Positions 14,009 through 24,095 of a stretch of 64,000 bases of DNA are shown here, piece by piece. The notes beneath the pieces are model-generated. The model saw only the letters and a list, made by a program, of their open reading frames with translations. It ran no database searches and was not told the DNA's origin. Source of the stretch: an uncultured Francisella sp. (GTDB lineage: Bacteria; Pseudomonadota; Gammaproteobacteria; Burkholderiales; Neisseriaceae); contig CALUCM010000004.1 in NCBI GenBank assembly GCA_943914555.1, forward strand, positions 2,137-66,136. Direction: 5' to 3'. A program made the translations under genes and the position numbers. Each line of letters begins with the position of its first letter. Positions within the stretch are counted from its first letter, which is position 1.

Positions 14009-14897
14009 CTCTTTTCAATCCTCCTGCAGCCTTTATTAATATCTCATATAATGAGGTCAAATCTTGAGCAAATAACCATTGGAATGTAAGTGCGTCATTT
14101 GGGTCTATCTCTATCGCCTGCTGCTTTTCCACATATTGAATACTTTTCAAACTAAAATCTTCACATAAAATAAAACGTAATTTATCTTGCCAAATGAGCG
14201 CTAATTGACTGACAAAATGGTCCTTTTTAAGTATTCCAACTACTTCTTTACTTTGGATATCTTGATTTACAAAACGGCTCACACTCTTAATATTTGCAAT
14301 ATTTTTTAATTCGCAGTAATTACCTATAACCAAATCACTAGGTAAGCTACCATCATCCAGTAGCCACTGACTCATTAAATCAGTAGCAGCCTTGTCGCAT
14401 GATATTAAAGCTGCTTCAAAACTGCCTAAGGCTTGACGTAGATATGACAATAATTCTTCTCGTTTATTCGCTTGAGCTTGATTAACTAGTAAAAACCCCT
14501 TATCACTGATATAAATCGCCTCAATAGTGGAAGTCTGGCTAAAAGCCCGAGGTAATAATTCATCTAATACTCTTTGTTTTAAAGCTTTTTTATCTTTAAT
14601 AGAAAGTTGCCGATGCTCTTTTTCTTCTATTTCTTTAATTTTACGCTCAGACTCTTGTCTGAGTACAGAAGCTGGTAACAATCTTTTTTCTTTGCGCAAT
14701 TGTATTTTCCAACTATTCTGAGCTGTGATAACCATTTGATCACTAAAATCATAAGGTGGAGCAAAGCCCTGCTCTGCTATGCTAAGATCAAGTAACAAGG
14801 GGATAGCATGTTTTTGCAGGCTGGTTTCCCAGATATTAATACTTGGCACTAAAGAAGGATTAATATGAAATAAACTTAACTGACTAAATGCCTTCAT
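13998..14897 (-). CDS. rdgC: Recombination-associated protein RdgC
   Basis: 299 aa. [10 protein letters not shown] matches E. coli HSLLPRAFSR, and the C-terminal [16 protein letters not shown] matches LALDWQQRIQFVMCDD. Confidence 0.85.
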
Positions 14898-15772
14898 TTT
14901 GCTCTTAATCCTTGGACAATTAAACGTATATTATGGCGCATAAGTTGAAGATAATCAGCAGCATCACCTGATGTTGCGCTTAAACTATCAGAATATAATC
15001 CCCCTATCACACAAGTATTTGTTGATTTAGCTACTTGCCTACTTAAACGGATATTTGAATCCATTTCAGAAAAGATGCAGCGTGTTTTTTTTACGTGAAT
15101 TTCATTTATCGCGCTAACAATTGCCTTGGCAGAAATATCGGCATGATGATGTTTTGGCTCCAAACTCAAATACTCCAGACCATAACGATTAGCCAAATAA
15201 TGAAAACCTCCATGTGTTGTTACTAATAAAGAGTGCACCGGTAGCTGCGAAAATGTTTTCGTAGAAAATCTGGCAAATTCAATCAATTGCTTGGCATATT
15301 GACGATATCTATGCAAATAAAAAGAACAATGTAGTTGATCATGCAAACACAATGCCTTAGTAATGCTTGCCACTGCGCGATTACTTAAACCAATGTCATG
15401 CCAAGTATGAGGGTCAATATGACCATTTTTAAATGATAATAGTTGAGAGCGAGGATAACTGTTTTCTAAAAGAATTAATTTCTTAGGATATTTTCTCATC
15501 GCTCTTGTTAATGCCGGGATTTCTAGCCCCAAGCCCTGCCCAATGATCAAATCTGCAGTGTGTAGGCTCATTAAGTCGTGGGCAGTAGGTTCATAGTCAT
15601 GGGCATTTCTATCAAAGGGGACAAGTGAAGTGACCTTAACTTGCTCTCCCCCAATTTGCTTGACCCAATCAGCAATGATACTAAAACTAGCCACAACTTG
15701 TAGCGGTTTTGCTACTGAGCATTGGAGTAAAAATAAGCTTAAGACAAGCCCGATACAAATGCGTTTTATCAT
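14894..15772 (-). CDS. Metal (Zn/Mn-type, cluster 9 TroA/ZnuA-like) ABC transporter substrate-binding protein
   Basis: It has a signal peptide, a short His run (KHHH) and a ZnuA/TroA-like fold. Metal specificity cannot be assigned from sequence. Confidence 0.75.
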   Translation of the reverse strand: MIKRICIGLVLSLFLLQCSVAKPLQVVASFSIIADWVKQIGGEQVKVTSLVPFDRNAHDYEPTAHDLMSLHTADLIIGQGLGLEIPALTRAMRKYPKKLILLENSYPRSQLLSFKNGHIDPHTWHDIGLSNRAVASITKALCLHDQLHCSFYLHRYRQYAKQLIEFARFSTKTFSQLPVHSLLVTTHGGFHYLANRYGLEYLSLEPKHHHADISAKAIVSAINEIHVKKTRCIFSEMDSNIRLSRQVAKSTNTCVIGGLYSDSLSATSGDAADYLQLMRHNIRLIVQGLRAK

Positions 15773-15783
15773 AATTTGCTTCT

Positions 15784-16632
15784 TTATCGTTGAATAAAAT
15801 AAGATCTAAGGCTTCCTTTAATAAATAAAGAAAGAAGATAGAGTATACCGCCACATAAGATAATGGTCGCACCTGCAGCGAAATCAAAATAAAAAGAACA
15901 TAAAAGGCCGATTACCCCACTTATCAAAGAAAAAATAAACGCTCCTATTAAAAGGATAGAAATACGATGAAACCATAGTTGAGCAGTGATAGCAGGTATA
16001 ATCATTAACCCGACCGATAATAAAGTTCCAAAAGTCTGAAAACCTGAAACCAAATTAAGCACAACCAAAAACTGAAATATCAATACAAAAAGTAAAGGAT
16101 GACTTTTTAAACCACGCAAAAAAGTTGGTTCAACGGTATCTATATAAAGTGGTCGAAAAATAATCATCAAAGTAACTAAACTGAACGAGCAGGCGCAAGC
16201 AATCCACAATAAATTTTGATGCGAGATTTGAAACAATGAACCAAATAAAAAGCTCATTAAATCAGTACTAGAACCAAACTTATTAACCAAAATCACCCCA
16301 AGAGCTAAAGAACTAAGATAAAAACCAGCAAAGCTTGCATCTTCCTTTAACTCATTTTTATCACTGGCCAAGCTACTACCCAATAAACTAAGATAACCAG
16401 TAACTAATCCACCAACACTCATTACAATTGGGTTAAGGCCGCTTAACATAAAGCCAATCGCCACACCTGGTAAAATAGCATGACTTAAAGCATCCCCCAT
16501 TAAGCTCATACGGCGCATGATTAAAAAAACCCCAAGGGGCGCAATAGCCAAACTTTGGTAGAAAATTGCGAGTAAGGCAAAACGCATAAATTCATATTCA
16601 ACAAAGGGGCGGCACAGATAATGATAAAACAT
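15784..16632 (-). CDS. Metal ABC transporter permease (ZnuB/MntB-like)
   Basis: Polytopic membrane protein. Start is taken at the internal ATG at 16632 (MFYHYL), which avoids overlap with the upstream ATPase gene. Confidence 0.75.
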   Translation of the reverse strand: MFYHYLCRPFVEYEFMRFALLAIFYQSLAIAPLGVFLIMRRMSLMGDALSHAILPGVAIGFMLSGLNPIVMSVGGLVTGYLSLLGSSLASDKNELKEDASFAGFYLSSLALGVILVNKFGSSTDLMSFLFGSLFQISHQNLLWIACACSFSLVTLMIIFRPLYIDTVEPTFLRGLKSHPLLFVLIFQFLVVLNLVSGFQTFGTLLSVGLMIIPAITAQLWFHRISILLIGAFIFSLISGVIGLLCSFYFDFAAGATIILCGGILYLLSLFIKGSLRSYFIQR

Positions 16633-16636
16633 GCTT

Positions 16637-17302
16637 TCATTTTCCCTGAGTAATGAAAGCATTAGAAACCTTATGACTTACTTTATCTAACTGCACAACC
16701 TGTGAAAAATGTTGTGCCACTATATCATTATTGTGTAATACGGCAATCACTGTTTTGCCTTCCTTGCGTAAACGGGCAAATAATGACAGAAAACACTGTG
16801 TACTACCCTCATCAACAGCATTGAATGGTTCATCCAAAAGCAAGAAATCAGCCTTTTGTACTAAAGCTCGTGCTAAACGTGAGCGCTGTAGTTGACCGCG
16901 AGAAAGCCGATCAATCGATTGTTTGGCCAAATCTTGCAAACCAACCACATGCAGTGCATCTTGCACCTGTTGCACTTGTGAAGAATTGATCGTTTTATAA
17001 AAAGAAATTTCATACCAAAGACCAAAACAAACGAATTCAAATACAGTTAGCATAGCTGATGCATGAAATTGTGGCTCTTGTGCAAGATAGGCCATAGCAG
17101 GGGGCGGTACATCAACCCATTGTATCCGACCGCTTAGTGGTCTAATTAAACGATAAATGGTTTTTAGTAAAGTAGATTTGCCGCTGCCGTTTCTTCCACA
17201 AATAGCCCATTGCTCACCTTGTTTAAAACATAGATCAATATTTTTAAGCACCAAATGTTTGCGATAGGCAACGTTCACTGCTTGCAAAATAATTTGCCCC
17301 AT
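16637..17302 (-). CDS. Metal ABC transporter ATP-binding protein (ZnuC/MntA-like)
   Basis: It has Walker A GRNGSGKST, ABC signature LSRGQLQR and Walker B LLLDEP. Confidence 0.85.
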   Translation of the reverse strand: MGQIILQAVNVAYRKHLVLKNIDLCFKQGEQWAICGRNGSGKSTLLKTIYRLIRPLSGRIQWVDVPPPAMAYLAQEPQFHASAMLTVFEFVCFGLWYEISFYKTINSSQVQQVQDALHVVGLQDLAKQSIDRLSRGQLQRSRLARALVQKADFLLLDEPFNAVDEGSTQCFLSLFARLRKEGKTVIAVLHNNDIVAQHFSQVVQLDKVSHKVSNAFITQGK

Positions 17303-17515: not shown

Positions 17516-18028
17516 ATGAATTTACTTTTATGGCGACATGCTGATGCTGAAGCTCTTGACAACGATTTAGCGCGCCAATTAACCATTAAGGGCAAAGAGC
17601 AAGCGCGAAAAATGGCTCAGTGGATTAATGCCCACTTTTATCAAGACTACACCTGCTGGGTTTCTCAAGCAAAAAGAACCCAGCAAACCGCATCATACTT
17701 AACAGAAAACATGGTCATCAATAGTAAGCTCAATCCGGGAGCAAATGTACAAAAAATTATTGATGAGTTAGCAAAGCTTAAAAGCAATACCGATCTCATC
17801 CTAGTGGGTCATCAACCTTGGATAGGTAAGCTGGCTTTATTTCTAATTAATGGATATCACTATCCTAATAGTTATTTATCCTTTAAAAAAGCCAACATCT
17901 GGTGGCTAGAAAATAAAGATGGTTTTAATCACGCAAGCAGCTTTTTTCATCTTAAAGCCGTGCTGAGCCCTGCGCTACTCAAAGAATCTGCTGCAAAAAA
18001 AACATTAAAAAGATCACAATCAAAATAA
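17516..18028 (+). CDS. sixA: Phosphohistidine phosphatase SixA (histidine phosphatase superfamily)
   Basis: LWRHADAE aligns with SixA MRHGDA, and LILVGHQPWIGKL with VISHLPLVGYL. The 3' end overlaps the convergent ubiB by 50 nt. Confidence 0.7.
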   Translation: MNLLLWRHADAEALDNDLARQLTIKGKEQARKMAQWINAHFYQDYTCWVSQAKRTQQTASYLTENMVINSKLNPGANVQKIIDELAKLKSNTDLILVGHQPWIGKLALFLINGYHYPNSYLSFKKANIWWLENKDGFNHASSFFHLKAVLSPALLKESAAKKTLKRSQSK

Positions 18029-19496
18029 TGAGACAGAGCTGTATCATTTTTTGCTGACGCATTAAAATACGCAAACTTTTTTCTTGATGCTCCAATCGTT
18101 GGTCTAAAACACGATCAATTTTTCTGGGCAGCTGAGGCAGAATTCGACTCCATAATAAAGATTCATTTTTAATATTTCTCCATAAAGCAGGAAAACCTAA
18201 TTGTTCCTTAGTCCAGCGTTCAAAAAAAGGTTTACCAATTTGCCATAGATCTAAATCAGGATTTAGCTGCCTACCTAAACCTTCAACATTAAGCAATGTT
18301 TTTTGTAGTAGTACTAATTGAGATTGCACCTCAATATTAAAACGTCGGCTTACCTGAAATAAACGCAGCAGTACTAGACCAAAGGAAATACGTGCCAAAG
18401 GTTGATTAAAAATTGGTTCACACACATAACGAATGGCTGCTTCTAGTTCTTCCACTCTTGTTTCACTGGGTGCCCAACCAGATTCGATATGGGTCTCTGC
18501 TACCTTACGGTAATCACGATTAAAAAAAGCAAGAAAATTAATGGCTAAATAGCGTTTATCATGATCTGTTAACGAACCAAAAATACCGAAATCTAAGGCA
18601 ATATAACGTCCATCATCGGCAACCCAAATATTGCCCGGATGCATATCAGCATGAAAAAAACCTTCATTAAATACTTGTTCAAAAAAAAGGGTCACTCCCG
18701 CTGCAGACAATTTTTTTAAATCAATATTTTTGGCTTTTAACTGTGCAATATCATTAACCGGTACACCTTCCATCCATTCCAATGTGAGTACATGTTCGGT
18801 ACAATAATCAAAATACACTTTCGGTGCAATCACTAAAGGACTGTTTAAAAAACGGCGTCGAAATAAGCTAGCATTGGCCGCTTCGTTAAGAAAACTAATT
18901 TCGCTATCAAGGCATTTTTTAAATTCCAGCAATACTTCTTTTAATTTCAAACGCTTGGCATCTGTAGATAGCCATTCTAGAAAGCTACAAATACATGAAA
19001 TTAGACGAGTATCTTGCTCAATCAATGCCTTGACATTGGGGCGGATAATCTTAACAGCAACTTTTTGGCCGCTACCTCTAAGACGAGCTTGGTGTACTTG
19101 CGCAATAGAAGCACTAGCTACTGGAATTGGATCAAAATGACAATATAACTCCTCTGGTAAACGTTTAAAATCTAAAAGTATCTGCTGACTCGCTAAATGG
19201 CTGTCAAAAGGAACCACATCATTTTGTAAATGGGAAAGTTCATCAATGTATTCCTTTGAAAAAATATCTGGTCTGGTCGACAGCACTTGACCAAATTTAA
19301 TAAAAATAGGACCTAATTCTTCCAACGCGCGACGCAAACGCACCGGTAAGCTTAAATCGGAGAAACGATTGGAAAGAGGATAATAGCGTAATAGTTTCCT
19401 CAAACTCCAAGGAAGATTATCCCGCTTAATGAGCTCTATTAAAGAGTAGCGGTGGACAATACTTAAGATATTAAACAGTCTAAATAATGATTTCAT
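17979..19496 (-). CDS. ubiB: Ubiquinone biosynthesis protein kinase UbiB
   Basis: 505 aa with LGPIFIKFGQVLSTRPDI, ASASIAQVH and ADMHPGNI, ending in C-terminal TM helices. These are UbiB/ABC1 atypical kinase features. Confidence 0.9.
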   Translation of the reverse strand: MKSLFRLFNILSIVHRYSLIELIKRDNLPWSLRKLLRYYPLSNRFSDLSLPVRLRRALEELGPIFIKFGQVLSTRPDIFSKEYIDELSHLQNDVVPFDSHLASQQILLDFKRLPEELYCHFDPIPVASASIAQVHQARLRGSGQKVAVKIIRPNVKALIEQDTRLISCICSFLEWLSTDAKRLKLKEVLLEFKKCLDSEISFLNEAANASLFRRRFLNSPLVIAPKVYFDYCTEHVLTLEWMEGVPVNDIAQLKAKNIDLKKLSAAGVTLFFEQVFNEGFFHADMHPGNIWVADDGRYIALDFGIFGSLTDHDKRYLAINFLAFFNRDYRKVAETHIESGWAPSETRVEELEAAIRYVCEPIFNQPLARISFGLVLLRLFQVSRRFNIEVQSQLVLLQKTLLNVEGLGRQLNPDLDLWQIGKPFFERWTKEQLGFPALWRNIKNESLLWSRILPQLPRKIDRVLDQRLEHQEKSLRILMRQQKMIQLCLIILIVIFLMFFLQQIL

Positions 19497-19652: not shown

Positions 19653-20051
19653 ATGTCTAACGCTAAAAAAATAATTCACACAAAAAAAGCACCTCAGCCG
19701 ATCGGCGCATATTCTCAGGCTATTGAGGTTAGTCAGTCAGAAAAAATAATTTATCTTTCTGGCCAAATTCCTTTATCACCAGAAACAGGGCAGTTGATTG
19801 GTGAAGATTTTATCACTCAGGCAAAACAAGTATTTAGCAATATCAATGCTGTACTTTGCGCTGCTGGAAGTAGCTTTACCGATTTGGTTAAATTAAATGT
19901 TTACCTGATTGACATTAATCACACTCCTATTCTTAATCAAGTCATGCAAGAGATTTTTCATGATGCATTCCCTGCCCGTAGCACAGTGCAAGTGTGTAAA
20001 TTACCAGCAAACGCCCTGATAGAAATTGAAGCAATCGCTTTAGCTCACTGA
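19653..20051 (+). CDS. ridA: RidA/YjgF-family reactive enamine/imine deaminase
   Basis: 132 aa with APQPIGAYSQAI and the typical RidA length. Confidence 0.85.
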   Translation: MSNAKKIIHTKKAPQPIGAYSQAIEVSQSEKIIYLSGQIPLSPETGQLIGEDFITQAKQVFSNINAVLCAAGSSFTDLVKLNVYLIDINHTPILNQVMQEIFHDAFPARSTVQVCKLPANALIEIEAIALAH

Positions 20052-20166: not shown

Positions 20167-20757
20167 CTATTCCACCTGATGCAACAATTTTTTTACTAAT
20201 CGTGGTACTGCCTCACCTGCCTTGGCTTGAATAACCGTTACATCCTCTCGCTGTGTATCAGGTTTGGGGTCAACAAGATAAATAGGTATGTCTGCAACTA
20301 CAATATTTGGTACCGCTTCACCAAACCACACCACATGCGGACGCAAAGGACCACCTTGACTGTCTGTATCTGCGGAACTTAAATCTCCTTGCCAGTCTAA
20401 AATTTCCTGCTCATTAGTAAGAGAACGCACCTTATTGAGCTCCCCATGCAGATGAATGATATTTTTACTGCCCGCTCGTTCATGCAAATCATCAATATTC
20501 TGTGTGATAATGCTTACCTCATAGGATTTCTCTAATTGTTTGAGGGCATAATGCGCAGCATTGGGCTGTGCTTTTTTTAGTTCTCTACGCCGAGCATTGT
20601 AAAAAGCCAATACTAATTCCGGGTTTCTGGCATATCCTTCCGGGGTTGCAACCTCTAAAACCGGATATCCTTCCCATAGCCCTCCAGCATCACGGAAAGT
20701 TTTAATACCGCTTTCTTGGCTAATTCCAGCCCCAGTTAATACCACTATTTTTTTCAT
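20167..20757 (-). CDS. cobB: Sir2-family NAD-dependent deacylase (CobB-like), shortened and lacking Zn-binding cysteines
   Basis: [30 protein letters not shown] and [26 protein letters not shown]...[11 protein letters not shown] align to E. coli CobB [25 protein letters not shown]...[11 protein letters not shown]. The four Zn-ribbon Cys are replaced. Only 196 aa; the GTS/VYPAA strand after FGE appears deleted. Confidence 0.7.
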
Positions 20758-20772
20758 AGCCCATGAATTATC

Positions 20773-21426
20773 TTAAAGTGCATAATGGTGTAAGAGATTA
20801 ACACCACTAACTCTGGAAAAATGTACCATATAGTCAGCAAGACGTTTGGGAAAAACAATATCCCTAAATAAACTAATACCACGCAACATAGCAAATAAAT
20901 TAAAGTCATCCTCAGAAAGTTCTTCATTGATCGTTTCTTCACTCTGCATTAACGGAGGCAACTTCTGCAAAGCCTGATTAAGACGCCCAATAAAAATTTG
21001 TTTTTTTTCTCGTAATGAAGCCAAACTTGTGCCCAATAACTGCTCTTTCTTATGTATATAATAATCAATAGCACTTTGTGTTTTAAATTCAGGGAAAGCA
21101 ATTAACACATAGTGTGGTAAAGTAAGCAAACGGATATCATCACGCACACTATCCAACCATTGGGTAATAGCTGGATTACTTTTTCCTATCACCCGAGCTA
21201 CTGCTTCTTGGTGATCTATATAATGGACAATTTCCATGCTCTCACCCATAACGCGCCCGTTTTGCTCTTCAAGTACTGGCACCATCTTCTTTCCTATTAA
21301 ATTTAATAACATTTGCTCCTCATCGTTGAGTAAAAATTTAAGGCGCATTGGCAACGCATGAATACCAAAAATCATTCTCGCTTTTATACAATATGGACAG
21401 TGTTCATACACATACAAAGTTCTCAT
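20773..21426 (-). CDS. grxB: Glutaredoxin 2
   Basis: YEHCPYCIKARMIFG, ESMEIVHYID, ELSEDDFNLFAMLR and RLADY align with E. coli GrxB YDHCPYCLKARMIFG, ESMDIVHYVD, ELSEDDIQLFPLLR and RVADY. Confidence 0.88.
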   Translation of the reverse strand: MRTLYVYEHCPYCIKARMIFGIHALPMRLKFLLNDEEQMLLNLIGKKMVPVLEEQNGRVMGESMEIVHYIDHQEAVARVIGKSNPAITQWLDSVRDDIRLLTLPHYVLIAFPEFKTQSAIDYYIHKKEQLLGTSLASLREKKQIFIGRLNQALQKLPPLMQSEETINEELSEDDFNLFAMLRGISLFRDIVFPKRLADYMVHFSRVSGVNLLHHYAL

Positions 21427-22031
21427 GTTTTGTTTCCTTTTACTTTGTTCCTTTGATAAAAAGACTGGGCAATAGTGCCAGAGTCAACATACTCCAATTC
21501 TCCACCTAAAGGAATACCATGCGCTAATCTTGTGATAACTACCGGATAAGGTTTTAACATTTCTTGCAAAATAAAAGCCGTAGTTTCTCCCTCTGCATTA
21601 AAATTAGTCCCTATAATAACTTCTTTTAAATTTTTTTCTTGAAGACGATGTTTTAATTGTTGTAAAGCAATATGATTGAGATCTTTATTAAGCAAAGGCT
21701 GTACTCCTCCCATCAGCACAAAATAAAGTCCCCTGTAGCAGTTAGCTGCTTCAACTGCCTGGACATCTAAGGGCATTTGTACAACCATTAATATACTTTG
21801 ATCTCTCTCTTTATCTTGACATAAATCACATAATTCTTCCTCACAAAAAGTATTACAATATTTACAGTGGCGTACCTGCTTTAATGCTTTTTCCAAGCAG
21901 TGAATTAAATGAAAAGCATCTTCTCTTTGATGCTGTAAAAGATAAAAGGCCATACGTCTAGCAGAAACAGGCCCAACATTAGGTAATACTTCTAAGGCTT
22001 GAGCCAACTCATCGAAAACATTTTTATTCAT
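21423..22031 (-). CDS. recR: Recombination protein RecR
   Basis: It has the N-terminal HhH LPNVGPVSARRMAFYLL, a C4 zinc finger CKYCNTFCEEELCDLC and a Toprim region. It follows ybaB, as in the canonical dnaX-ybaB-recR cluster. Confidence 0.88.
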   Translation of the reverse strand: MNKNVFDELAQALEVLPNVGPVSARRMAFYLLQHQREDAFHLIHCLEKALKQVRHCKYCNTFCEEELCDLCQDKERDQSILMVVQMPLDVQAVEAANCYRGLYFVLMGGVQPLLNKDLNHIALQQLKHRLQEKNLKEVIIGTNFNAEGETTAFILQEMLKPYPVVITRLAHGIPLGGELEYVDSGTIAQSFYQRNKVKGNKT

Positions 22032-22037
22032 TATTCA

Positions 22038-22370
22038 TTACTTAAAAAAGTGCTCCATATCTGCTGGCAATTGTAGTCCACCTGTGAGCGCTCCCATTTT
22101 TTCTTGTATCTGTGCTTCTACTTTTTCTCGGGCGTTATTGACAGCAGCACTGATTAAATCTTCCAACATATCTTTATCTTCAAGCAAAGAATCATCCAAA
22201 ATTTGTATACGTTTAACTACTTGATCTCCACTCATTTTCACTTTGACTGCACCAGCACCAGCATCTCCTTCTACCTCAATTTTTTTTAACTCTTCTTGAG
22301 TTTGTTTCATTCTCTCCTGCATCTGCTGGGTTTGTTTCAATAAATTGCCTATACCACCTTTGCCAAACAT
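22038..22370 (-). CDS. ybaB: Nucleoid-associated protein YbaB/EbfC
   Basis: [21 protein letters not shown] matches E. coli [21 protein letters not shown]. Start is taken at the ATG at 22370; the longer ORF begins at a TTG. Confidence 0.9.
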
Positions 22371-22394
22371 AATTTTCTCCAAAATAATAATAGC

Positions 22395-24095
22395 TTAAAC
22401 CAATACACAAGTTGAAGGATCCCATTTACCTTCAAAAAGATTTTTTAATTCCACCGCCTGTGAATCGCGATCAAGATAATGCAAAACTTGCTGTCGCTGA
22501 TGATCACGCACATGTAATTTTAACTCAGTATAAGTTCTTAAGCCTGATTGCCAAATCGACCAGATCAATTCAAGCCCATGATATTTTGCAAAAGCATCAT
22601 GAAGTAACTGTTTATGACGATCTACAACTTTTAGATCAAAATAATCTTCTTTTTTAATTGCACAAATACAAATTTTTTCTTCTTGCTTTAAAGAAATAAA
22701 CGCAGTTTGAAAAATAAGTGACTGATTATATTCATCTGATAAGGTTAATAGCTGATCCATGATTGCTAACCATTTTTCTTCAGACGGTGTTAGCAGACTT
22801 GTTTGTGATAAATCAAAACCGTCTTGACTTTGCTGAATCGAATGAGTCAATTGACTTGTTGTAAGTTGCGTGGACTTTTCTAATTTATTATTAAATGACG
22901 ATGCTGATTCCTGCTGAGGCACGGTTGAAACGGTATTATCTAAGTTAAACTTTTTTTTTAAGCCTATGTTAGCTACATCAGTAGATAAAGATGACTTATT
23001 CTTTAAAAAATAAGGTTGAAAAGAAAGTAAACGCACCATCATCATTAAAAACCCTGTGTAATCATCAGGAATAACTGCTTCATCTCGTTTAGACTGCACA
23101 ACGGTTTGGTAAAAAACTTGAATTTGTTCATTAGATAAACATTGTCCAAGTTGATAAAAAAGAGACTGTTGAGATTCTTCATATCCCTCTGGAACAATTG
23201 AAAAACTTTTATATACTGCCAAATCATTTAATATAAAAATTAATTCATCCAATAAAGCAGCAAAATTAATTCCCTTATAGCGCAAGTCATTCAGTTGTTG
23301 ATAAAGCTCCTGCTTTTTATCCTGGCTAATCAACAATAGTAATTGGTATAGGGTATCACGTTTTACTACACCTAACATAGCTTCTACAGTAGCAGTATCA
23401 ATTTGATTATCAGACAAAGCAAGCGCCTCATCCAATAAACTTAAAGCATCACGCATAGAGCCAGTAGCAAAGCGAGCTAATAATTGGATAGCTCCTTCTT
23501 CATAGCTAAGATGCATTTCTCGCATAATATTTTCAAGATGAGCTGCAATCTGCTGACTAGGCAGGTTTCTTAGTACGAATTGAAGACAACGACTTAATAT
23601 AGTTACTGGTACCTTGTGTGCATCTGTGGTTGCTAATATGAATTTGACATGAGTAGGTGGTTCTTCTAAGGTTTTTAGCATCGCGTTAAAAGCACTTTTT
23701 GAAAGCATATGCACTTCATCGATAATATAAATTTTGTATTTGCCCATAGTAGGCATATACCGTGCGTTATCCAGTACTTCTCTGATATGATCAATCCCAG
23801 TATTGGAAGCTGCATCTATCTCCAATAAATCAGGAAAACGTTCTTTATCAATACTCTGACAAATCTCACAGTAACCACAAGGCTCACCGTCTTGCACATT
23901 AAGACAATTGGCTGCTTTGGCGAGAATGCGCGCAATTGTTGTCTTACCAACACCTCTGGTCCCAGTCAAAAGATAGGCATGATGCAATTTTTCTTCTTTG
24001 ACCGCATTTTGCAAAGCTTTAGTAACATGCTCCTGCCCAATTACCTCAGCAAATTTTTTAGGACGCAATCTACGCGCTAAAACTTCATAACTCAA
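22395..24095 (-). CDS. dnaX: DNA polymerase III subunits tau/gamma
   Basis: It has the AAA+ N-terminus (VIGQEHV, GTRGVGKTT) and is 566 aa. An internal A9G slippery run lies at a position equivalent to the E. coli gamma/tau frameshift site. Confidence 0.93.
   Translation of the reverse strand: MSYEVLARRLRPKKFAEVIGQEHVTKALQNAVKEEKLHHAYLLTGTRGVGKTTIARILAKAANCLNVQDGEPCGYCEICQSIDKERFPDLLEIDAASNTGIDHIREVLDNARYMPTMGKYKIYIIDEVHMLSKSAFNAMLKTLEEPPTHVKFILATTDAHKVPVTILSRCLQFVLRNLPSQQIAAHLENIMREMHLSYEEGAIQLLARFATGSMRDALSLLDEALALSDNQIDTATVEAMLGVVKRDTLYQLLLLISQDKKQELYQQLNDLRYKGINFAALLDELIFILNDLAVYKSFSIVPEGYEESQQSLFYQLGQCLSNEQIQVFYQTVVQSKRDEAVIPDDYTGFLMMMVRLLSFQPYFLKNKSSLSTDVANIGLKKKFNLDNTVSTVPQQESASSFNNKLEKSTQLTTSQLTHSIQQSQDGFDLSQTSLLTPSEEKWLAIMDQLLTLSDEYNQSLIFQTAFISLKQEEKICICAIKKEDYFDLKVVDRHKQLLHDAFAKYHGLELIWSIWQSGLRTYTELKLHVRDHQRQQVLHYLDRDSQAVELKNLFEGKWDPSTCVLV
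22945..22959 (-). other. dnaX: Probable programmed -1 ribosomal frameshift site in dnaX (A AAA AAA AAG followed by a -1-frame GTT TAA)
   Basis: On the minus strand the sequence reads GGC TTA AAA AAA AAG TTT AAC (G L K K K F N), about 67% through the ORF, the same relative position as the E. coli A AAA AAG site. After a -1 slip the next codons are GTT TAA, so the short product terminates one residue after the shift, like E. coli gamma (KKE-stop). Confidence 0.65.

Follow-up and report, generated by a model that had tools for sequence, protein, structure and literature searches.

The sirtuin Rossmann domain is built as a duplicated beta-alpha-beta-alpha-beta arrangement (PMC8556138), and reviews describe a structural zinc site of four cysteines as a conserved feature of canonical sirtuins. 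In SIRT2, the serine and the glutamine of the GTSLQV motif hydrogen-bond the NAD phosphates (PMC4583397), and the equivalent loop of SirTM coordinates the pyrophosphate (PMC4518038). E. coli CobB (1S5P, 6RXJ), a class III deacylase, showed approximately 46-47% identity with the protein studied here and has in common with it the motifs GAGIS, TFR, a YxxR pair, QNIDxLHERAG, HxHGEL and RPHVVWFGE, together with GTS and VYPAA in the 228-aa form of the gene. However, the KCHCC loop of CobB is 3 residues longer than the corresponding T---DSQGG, which has no zinc cysteine, and the allele found in the window (the whole 64-kb stretch of DNA that was analysed) is additionally shortened by 32 residues of the Rossmann domain. 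Human and zebrafish SIRT5 and Archaeoglobus Sir2-Af1 resemble the 228-aa form in fold (TMq 0.83-0.91 with its model) and in the Tyr/Arg pair of the acyl pocket, but they are longer, have the canonical CxxC...CxxC zinc module and are ~32-42% identical.

Proteins of Bacteroidota (Salinimicrobium, Hanstruepera, Arenibacter, Gillisia) that are named 'NAD-dependent deacylase' in NCBI and UniRef formed a Zn-less clade of 223-233 aa with 52-65% identity. They have the same motif set and no four-Cys site (0-2 Cys between HxHG and RPH), but all of them kept the 32-residue segment, and the host here is labelled as a Francisella-like gammaproteobacterium. Finally, the non-canonical Sir2 domains of DSR, SPARSA and FAM118 are also without zinc cysteines according to the literature, but these are NADases or ADP-ribosyltransferases with other architectures, partners and contexts. 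The window gene is a stand-alone CobB-like gene with the deacylase motif set in a housekeeping neighbourhood, and its membership in these groups is not proposed.

The sirtuin ORF and its small domain

In the ORF listing, 20167-20757 (minus strand) is an intact ORF that begins with ATG and encodes 196 aa. Its Pfam SIR2 match and its PDB match to CobB identified it as a CobB-type (class III) sirtuin gene in the form of a deletion allele. The match with the Pfam SIR2 profile (PF02146) had an E value of 1.3e-36 and a score of 126.6 bits against a cut-off of 24, and it ended early, at profile positions 1-154 of 180. By this domain profile the protein is assigned to the SIR2 superfamily. The best sequence match among solved structures was E. 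coli CobB 1S5P (E 6.5e-50), in which residues 3-154 aligned with residues 3-148 of the window protein; beyond this point, only the last ~15 residues aligned again. GAGIS, TFR, the YNAR pair, HLHGEL and RPHVVWFGE were all found. The preliminary description, made from the sequence alone, had noted that the N-terminal NAD motifs and the small domain can be aligned to CobB, and this was confirmed by the structure match. The E. coli CobB sequence used in the multiple alignment matches the PDB alignment over its first 154 residues and in its C-terminal motif, and the conclusions are based on database homologues and not on this sequence.

The GAGIS NAD-binding motif (aa 9-13; 20719..20733, minus strand) is retained, and G9, A10, G11 and S13 were invariant in the clade alignments. 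The Tyr/Arg pair typical of class III sirtuins of the SIRT5/CobB type is present as Y53-N-A-R56 (20590..20601, minus strand), with Y53 and R56 invariant in 71 aligned clade members; from what is known of SIRT5 and CobB, we take this pair to be a mark of class III and of specificity for acidic acyl groups. The catalytic histidine, His104 of HLHGEL (20446..20448, minus strand), aligned to the HG histidine of E. coli CobB and was also invariant. Overall, the catalytic histidine and the N-terminal NAD motifs (G9-S13, T20-R22, Q86-D89, H104) are kept in the window protein and are invariant in the clade. The Tyr-x-x-Arg pair and the best PDB matches in both sequence and fold (CobB, Sir2-Af1 and SIRT5) assign the protein to class III, CobB/SIRT5 type. 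The window protein scored below the cut-offs of the NCBIfam CobB equivalog models NF001755 (193 vs 318 bits), NF040867 (163 vs 320) and NF001753 (170 vs 243), and the full-length 228-aa protein (P0002) likewise scored below them, with 222, 211 and 217 bits, respectively. Since even full-length proteins fall under these cut-offs, the clade is covered by the generic SIR2 profile alone.

The small-domain segment that seats the four zinc cysteines in canonical sirtuins corresponds to aa 105-136 (20350..20445, minus strand) and has no cysteine in the alignments; the entire window protein has none. The canonical CxxC...CxxC positions are occupied by S112, N115 and then D and G within 'DSQGG', in agreement with the replacement of the Zn-Cys positions noted earlier. 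The models still predicted the three-stranded sheet of the small domain with high confidence (E105-112, E119-121 and E137-142).

The absence of the zinc cysteines was found throughout the clade. Among the best 120 database matches, 119 could be parsed, and the number of cysteines between HxHG and RPH was 0 in 29, 1 in 78 and 2 in 12 of these, with three or more in none. All 70 parsable species-representative loci, out of the 80 among the matches listed, had at most 2 cysteines in the small-domain segment; according to GTDB these loci were mostly from Bacteroidota, with a few MAGs of Pseudomonadota, Verrucomicrobiota and Marinimicrobia, and the relatives listed had at most 60% identity. When 1.84 billion 50%-identity representatives were searched exhaustively with HMMER, 896 matches had E ≤1e-30. 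Of the best 150 of these, 107 could be parsed; 89 had at most 2 cysteines and 18 had the canonical CxxC...CxxC. A large and diverse clade of CobB-type proteins, comprising most Bacteroidota and this lineage, is thus without the four-Cys zinc site that reviews call conserved, which bears on annotation rules and on how far sirtuin structure can be generalised. As the cysteine-less domain is common to all close relatives and their genes are under purifying selection, it does not represent decay; unlike the deletion described below, it does not make the window protein an outlier within the clade. On the aligned sequences, the Zn-free state is best read as old, ancestral and widespread in a CobB-type subclade on which purifying selection acts.

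A search for zinc-free class III sirtuins found no description of a Zn-less CobB-type clade in the searchable literature, which yielded statements on four-Cys conservation, in-silico notes on sirtuins of acetic-acid bacteria and the non-canonical defence sirtuins. The CobB of Porphyromonas gingivalis, which might belong to the Zn-less clade, has been studied experimentally. None of the solved structures among the PDB matches was that of a class III sirtuin without cysteines.

Two further observations were made on the relatives. Several representatives of 186-221 aa (P0167, P0191, P0193, P0198, P0200, P0288 and others) were without GTS, with alignments that stopped near residue 150-170. These are probably contig-end fragments or frameshifted calls, and independent C-terminal truncations of Zn-less sirtuins could also be among them. 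In addition, the nearest relatives outside the genus (52-65% identity) were almost all from Bacteroidota among the matches listed, and the host carries the label of a Francisella-like gammaproteobacterium; the Zn-less type may have been acquired horizontally, or relatives may be sparsely sampled.

Extent of the 96-bp deletion and constraint on the lost segment

A search of ~5.8 billion proteins showed that the nearest relative of the window protein is the 228-aa P0002, which is 100% identical outside one gap. DNA alignment of the window with the 228-aa alleles placed the junction of a 96-bp in-frame deletion at 20294..20295 on the minus strand. Removal of exactly these 96 bp from the 228-aa allele gives the window allele, with 0 fixed differences over the other 591 nt. 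The sole other variable column was one synonymous-site polymorphism in the locus L009. No secondary lesions have accumulated in the 196-aa gene, and its frame is intact. The lost peptide is MRLVKQADVLLVIGTSLQVYPAAGLIDTVKSS, exactly 32 residues that correspond to 156-187 of the 228-aa form, and the junction in the ORF reads ...ATTGTAGTTG|CAGACATACC..., with a microhomology of 1 nt (C). In the alignments, the GTS and VYPAA stretch of CobB has no counterpart in the window protein. The length of the gap fits the earlier estimate of ~30-40 missing residues, and the preliminary description was right on all points that it had observed.

The segment was retained by the relatives. Among the best 120 database matches, the window protein was the sole one without both GTS and VYPAA and the sole one shorter than 223 aa, hence its deletion is a real outlier; the other 119 all kept both motifs and were at least 223 aa long. 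GTS was kept in 69 of the 70 parsable species-representative loci. In an alignment of 70 clade members, G169, T170, S171, V174, Y175, P176 and A177 were invariant. The genes of two sister lineages (P0006 and P0007) encode 231 aa, are syntenic with the window locus and showed 94% amino acid identity and ~87-94% nucleotide identity in 200-bp windows of the locus. Among these sister-lineage genes the core of the deleted segment, QAD[VI]LLVIGTSLQVYPAAGLID, was unchanged, and pairwise Nei-Gojobori estimates gave a dN/dS of 0.06-0.09 at a dS of 0.40-0.52, which points to strong purifying selection on the sirtuin gene across the sister lineages. The ancestral state is intact at the same locus, both in the conspecific 228-aa allele and in the 231-aa orthologues. 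The lesion appears to hit constrained residues that would be functionally required in this protein.

Two other origins of the length difference were considered and rejected. Repeat-mediated or programmed excision was rejected because the flanks share just 1 nt of microhomology, and an insertion of the 96 bp in the longer alleles was rejected because the segment is present with an invariant core across all relatives.

The AF2 model of the 228-aa form had a pLDDT of 92.3 and superposed on E. coli CobB with a TM of 0.92-0.93 and an rmsd of 1.7-2.0 A. It comprised a helix at 152-160, a strand at 164-168 and a helix at 177-181, so that residues 156-187 correspond to the end of the first helix, the strand, the GTS loop and the second helix. 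The AF2 model of the 196-aa protein was without these three elements (228-aa numbering); its overall pLDDT was 89.7, falling to 75-79 around the junction, and it matched CobB with an rmsd of ~3.1 A and a TMq of 0.90. As judged from the models, the complete six-stranded Rossmann domain with its GTS pyrophosphate loop is present in the 228-aa allele and absent in the window allele. Given the duplicated beta-alpha-beta-alpha-beta build of the domain, the lost strand would be the middle strand of the second unit, and by the standard Rossmann strand order it would lie in the interior of the sheet. The high confidence of the 196-aa model does not speak for stability, since AF2 follows the family alignment and is known to be insensitive to deletions that destabilise a fold.

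The intact frame, the confident model with its TMq of 0.90 on CobB, the retention of the catalytic His and of the GAGIS, QNID and Y/R motifs, and the occurrence of the allele on 39 contigs from independent samples could indicate a stable and functional minimal sirtuin that is kept by selection and combines a Rossmann sheet of five strands with a small domain free of Zn. Such a variant had been offered earlier as one of two readings of the sequence. However, the architecture was seen in no other protein among the best 120 matches and is confined to one near-clonal haplotype of one species; the deleted residues, which are invariant in the clade, include NAD pyrophosphate ligands, and zero nucleotide changes elsewhere in the gene mean that there has been no compensatory evolution. 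In addition, the gene at this locus still has the segment in conspecifics (228 aa) and in sister lineages (231 aa), and a stable minimal sirtuin is accordingly considered very improbable. If this reading were true, one lineage of a human-associated bacterium would have a naturally minimal sirtuin in the 196-aa protein. In a weaker version of it, the zinc-free CobB-type clade may stabilise its small domain in a yet uncharacterised way.

A changed role of the 196-aa protein, for example as a dead acyl-lysine binder or as a dominant-negative partner of another sirtuin, would fit the retention of the peptide-binding cleft elements, the FGE loop and the small domain as well as the persistence of the allele in the population. 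Against this, the sequence has not changed besides the deletion, a second sirtuin or partner was not evident in the window, and the removal of an interior strand makes a stable fold doubtful; a new role of this kind is thus held to be hardly likely.

Distribution of the alleles and the favoured reading

The exact 196-aa protein (P0001) was found on 39 contigs and the 228-aa allele (P0002) on 120 contigs in the search of ~5.8 billion proteins. Both alleles have the same synteny, dnaX-ybaB-recR-grxB-sirtuin followed by a convergent ridA and then ubiB. The 196-aa contigs came from Logan, MEGAHIT (k119/k127) and SPAdes (NODE) assemblies and an NCBI record, with a human skin metagenome and others among the sources. 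Most carriers of the 196-aa allele differed by 0-4 SNPs per ~8.6 kb among themselves and by 13-44 SNPs from the 228-aa carriers, which indicates one event on one haplotype. The deletion has a single origin on one main near-clonal haplotype of one species; it is recent and segregates in the population. Apart from the 96 bp, no indel was found between the allele classes across the 8.6-kb neighbourhood.

A deletion that is in frame and leaves a remainder identical to the full-length allele is also what a collapse or misassembly of a truly full-length gene could give. However, the same junction was recovered in contigs that differ in project and assembler (Logan, MEGAHIT k119/k127, SPAdes NODE and the NCBI record), the deleted segment is unique with a 1-nt end microhomology and so offers no repeat to collapse, and the carriers have their own SNP haplotype in common. 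A sequencing or assembly artefact, an alternative raised in the preliminary description, is extremely unlikely in view of the 39 contigs from independent assemblies.

The 196-aa protein is likely to be a recent, segregating loss-of-function allele, either null or at best severely hypomorphic. The ancestral functional form in this organism would be the 228-aa CobB/SIRT5-type protein, a putative NAD-dependent protein deacylase without a structural zinc site. In one lineage, a single 96-bp in-frame deletion with 1 nt of microhomology would have removed residues 156-187. By the models, these span the last part of one helix, the middle strand of the second Rossmann half, the GTSLQV loop, which binds the NAD pyrophosphate through its Ser and Gln, and the helix with VYPAA. 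The 196-aa protein would keep its catalytic His and N-terminal NAD motifs, and productive NAD binding or stable folding would most likely be lost; the loss of activity is what we infer here. Three points speak against a loss of function. The frame is intact and free of secondary lesions, and continued function would be compatible with this sequence. AF2 still gave a confident sirtuin-like model for the 196-aa protein, with its pLDDT of 89.7. Contigs with the 196-aa protein amount to approximately a quarter of the full-length count, and one carrier (L005) has a diverged flank, which shows that the allele is no one-off and is at least tolerated.

Under the reading as a loss-of-function allele, the proposal of a decaying cobB held for the deletion and failed for the Cys-less small domain, which is clade-wide and under purifying selection. 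The missing cysteines and the missing strand had been treated as one phenomenon; both are real but have separate origins, an ancestral clade trait in the first case and a recent 96-bp deletion in the second. Orthologues of normal length (228 and 231 aa) were found at the locus, and this result favours recent pseudogenisation over a stable variant. As a polymorphic and probably null variant of a gene for a regulatory, non-essential deacylase, the window allele would be one of a sort that is found segregating in many populations of bacteria. The otherwise identical 228-aa and 196-aa pair constitutes a natural experiment on the beta5/GTS element in sirtuin folding and NAD binding.

Side observations were made on two haplotypes. 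In the deletion carrier L005, the 5' flank on the recR/ybaB side (L005:1-600) was ~8% diverged from the other haplotypes and from both sister lineages; its first 200 bp matched nothing among the sequences compared, and the coverage of the contig was low (~4). Either the flank was imported by recombination or the contig is a chimera of the assembly. In L008, a 228-aa haplotype, grxB (L008:3383-3985) was called with 200 aa and not 217 aa (P0153, 4 contigs), which points to a polymorphism of the start codon or the N-terminus of glutaredoxin 2.

Locus context

The sirtuin gene lies downstream of a co-directional cluster on the minus strand (20773..24095) in the ORF listing. This cluster consists of dnaX (22395-24095), ybaB (22038-22382) and recR (21423-22031), identified by ORF and by Pfam on identical loci, and of grxB (20773-21426), identified by ORF and Pfam. 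The sirtuin starts 15 nt past the grxB stop and is probably the last gene of the cluster; from this spacing, co-transcription with the upstream genes may be expected. On the downstream side, the locus is bounded by a convergent gene of the RidA/L-PSP family on the plus strand (19653..20051; Pfam PF01042, E 3.3e-36), an arrangement that was identical in all related loci. A promoter and terminator scan of the locus gave counts not above those of shuffled sequence, and a tRNA scan and an Rfam search at the gathering threshold had 0 matches in the gene-dense 64-kb window.

The GC content was 37.6%, and the organism is uncultured and present in human-associated metagenomes. UbiB fragments of the same 90% cluster carry the NCBI submitter label 'MAG: Francisella sp.'. 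The preliminary description had suggested that a decaying sirtuin would point to reductive genome evolution. A symptom of such ongoing reduction in a host-associated bacterium would be in keeping with an uncultured organism of low GC from human metagenomes and with the Francisella sp. label given by the NCBI submitters, as Francisella is a group with known pseudogene-rich lineages. However, at least 89% of the 64-kb window was covered by ORFs of 120 aa or more, with short gaps in between; the allele classes differed by no other indel in the 8.6-kb neighbourhood, and the sirtuin is under strong purifying selection across the sister lineages. The pointer to genome reduction was accordingly not borne out by the window, and this explanation of the deletion is regarded as unlikely.

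Two further arrangements were observed beyond ridA. A set of ABC-transporter genes on the minus strand (14894-17302), ~3 kb from the sirtuin, had ABC_tran, ABC-3 and ZnuA Pfam domains in identical loci, which suggests a znuCBA-like zinc uptake system; its proximity to a zinc-free sirtuin is probably coincidental. Finally, an ORF of the histidine-phosphatase family (17516-18028, plus strand) and ubiB (17979-19496, minus strand) converge at their 3' ends with a 50-bp overlap, which was conserved across all related loci.
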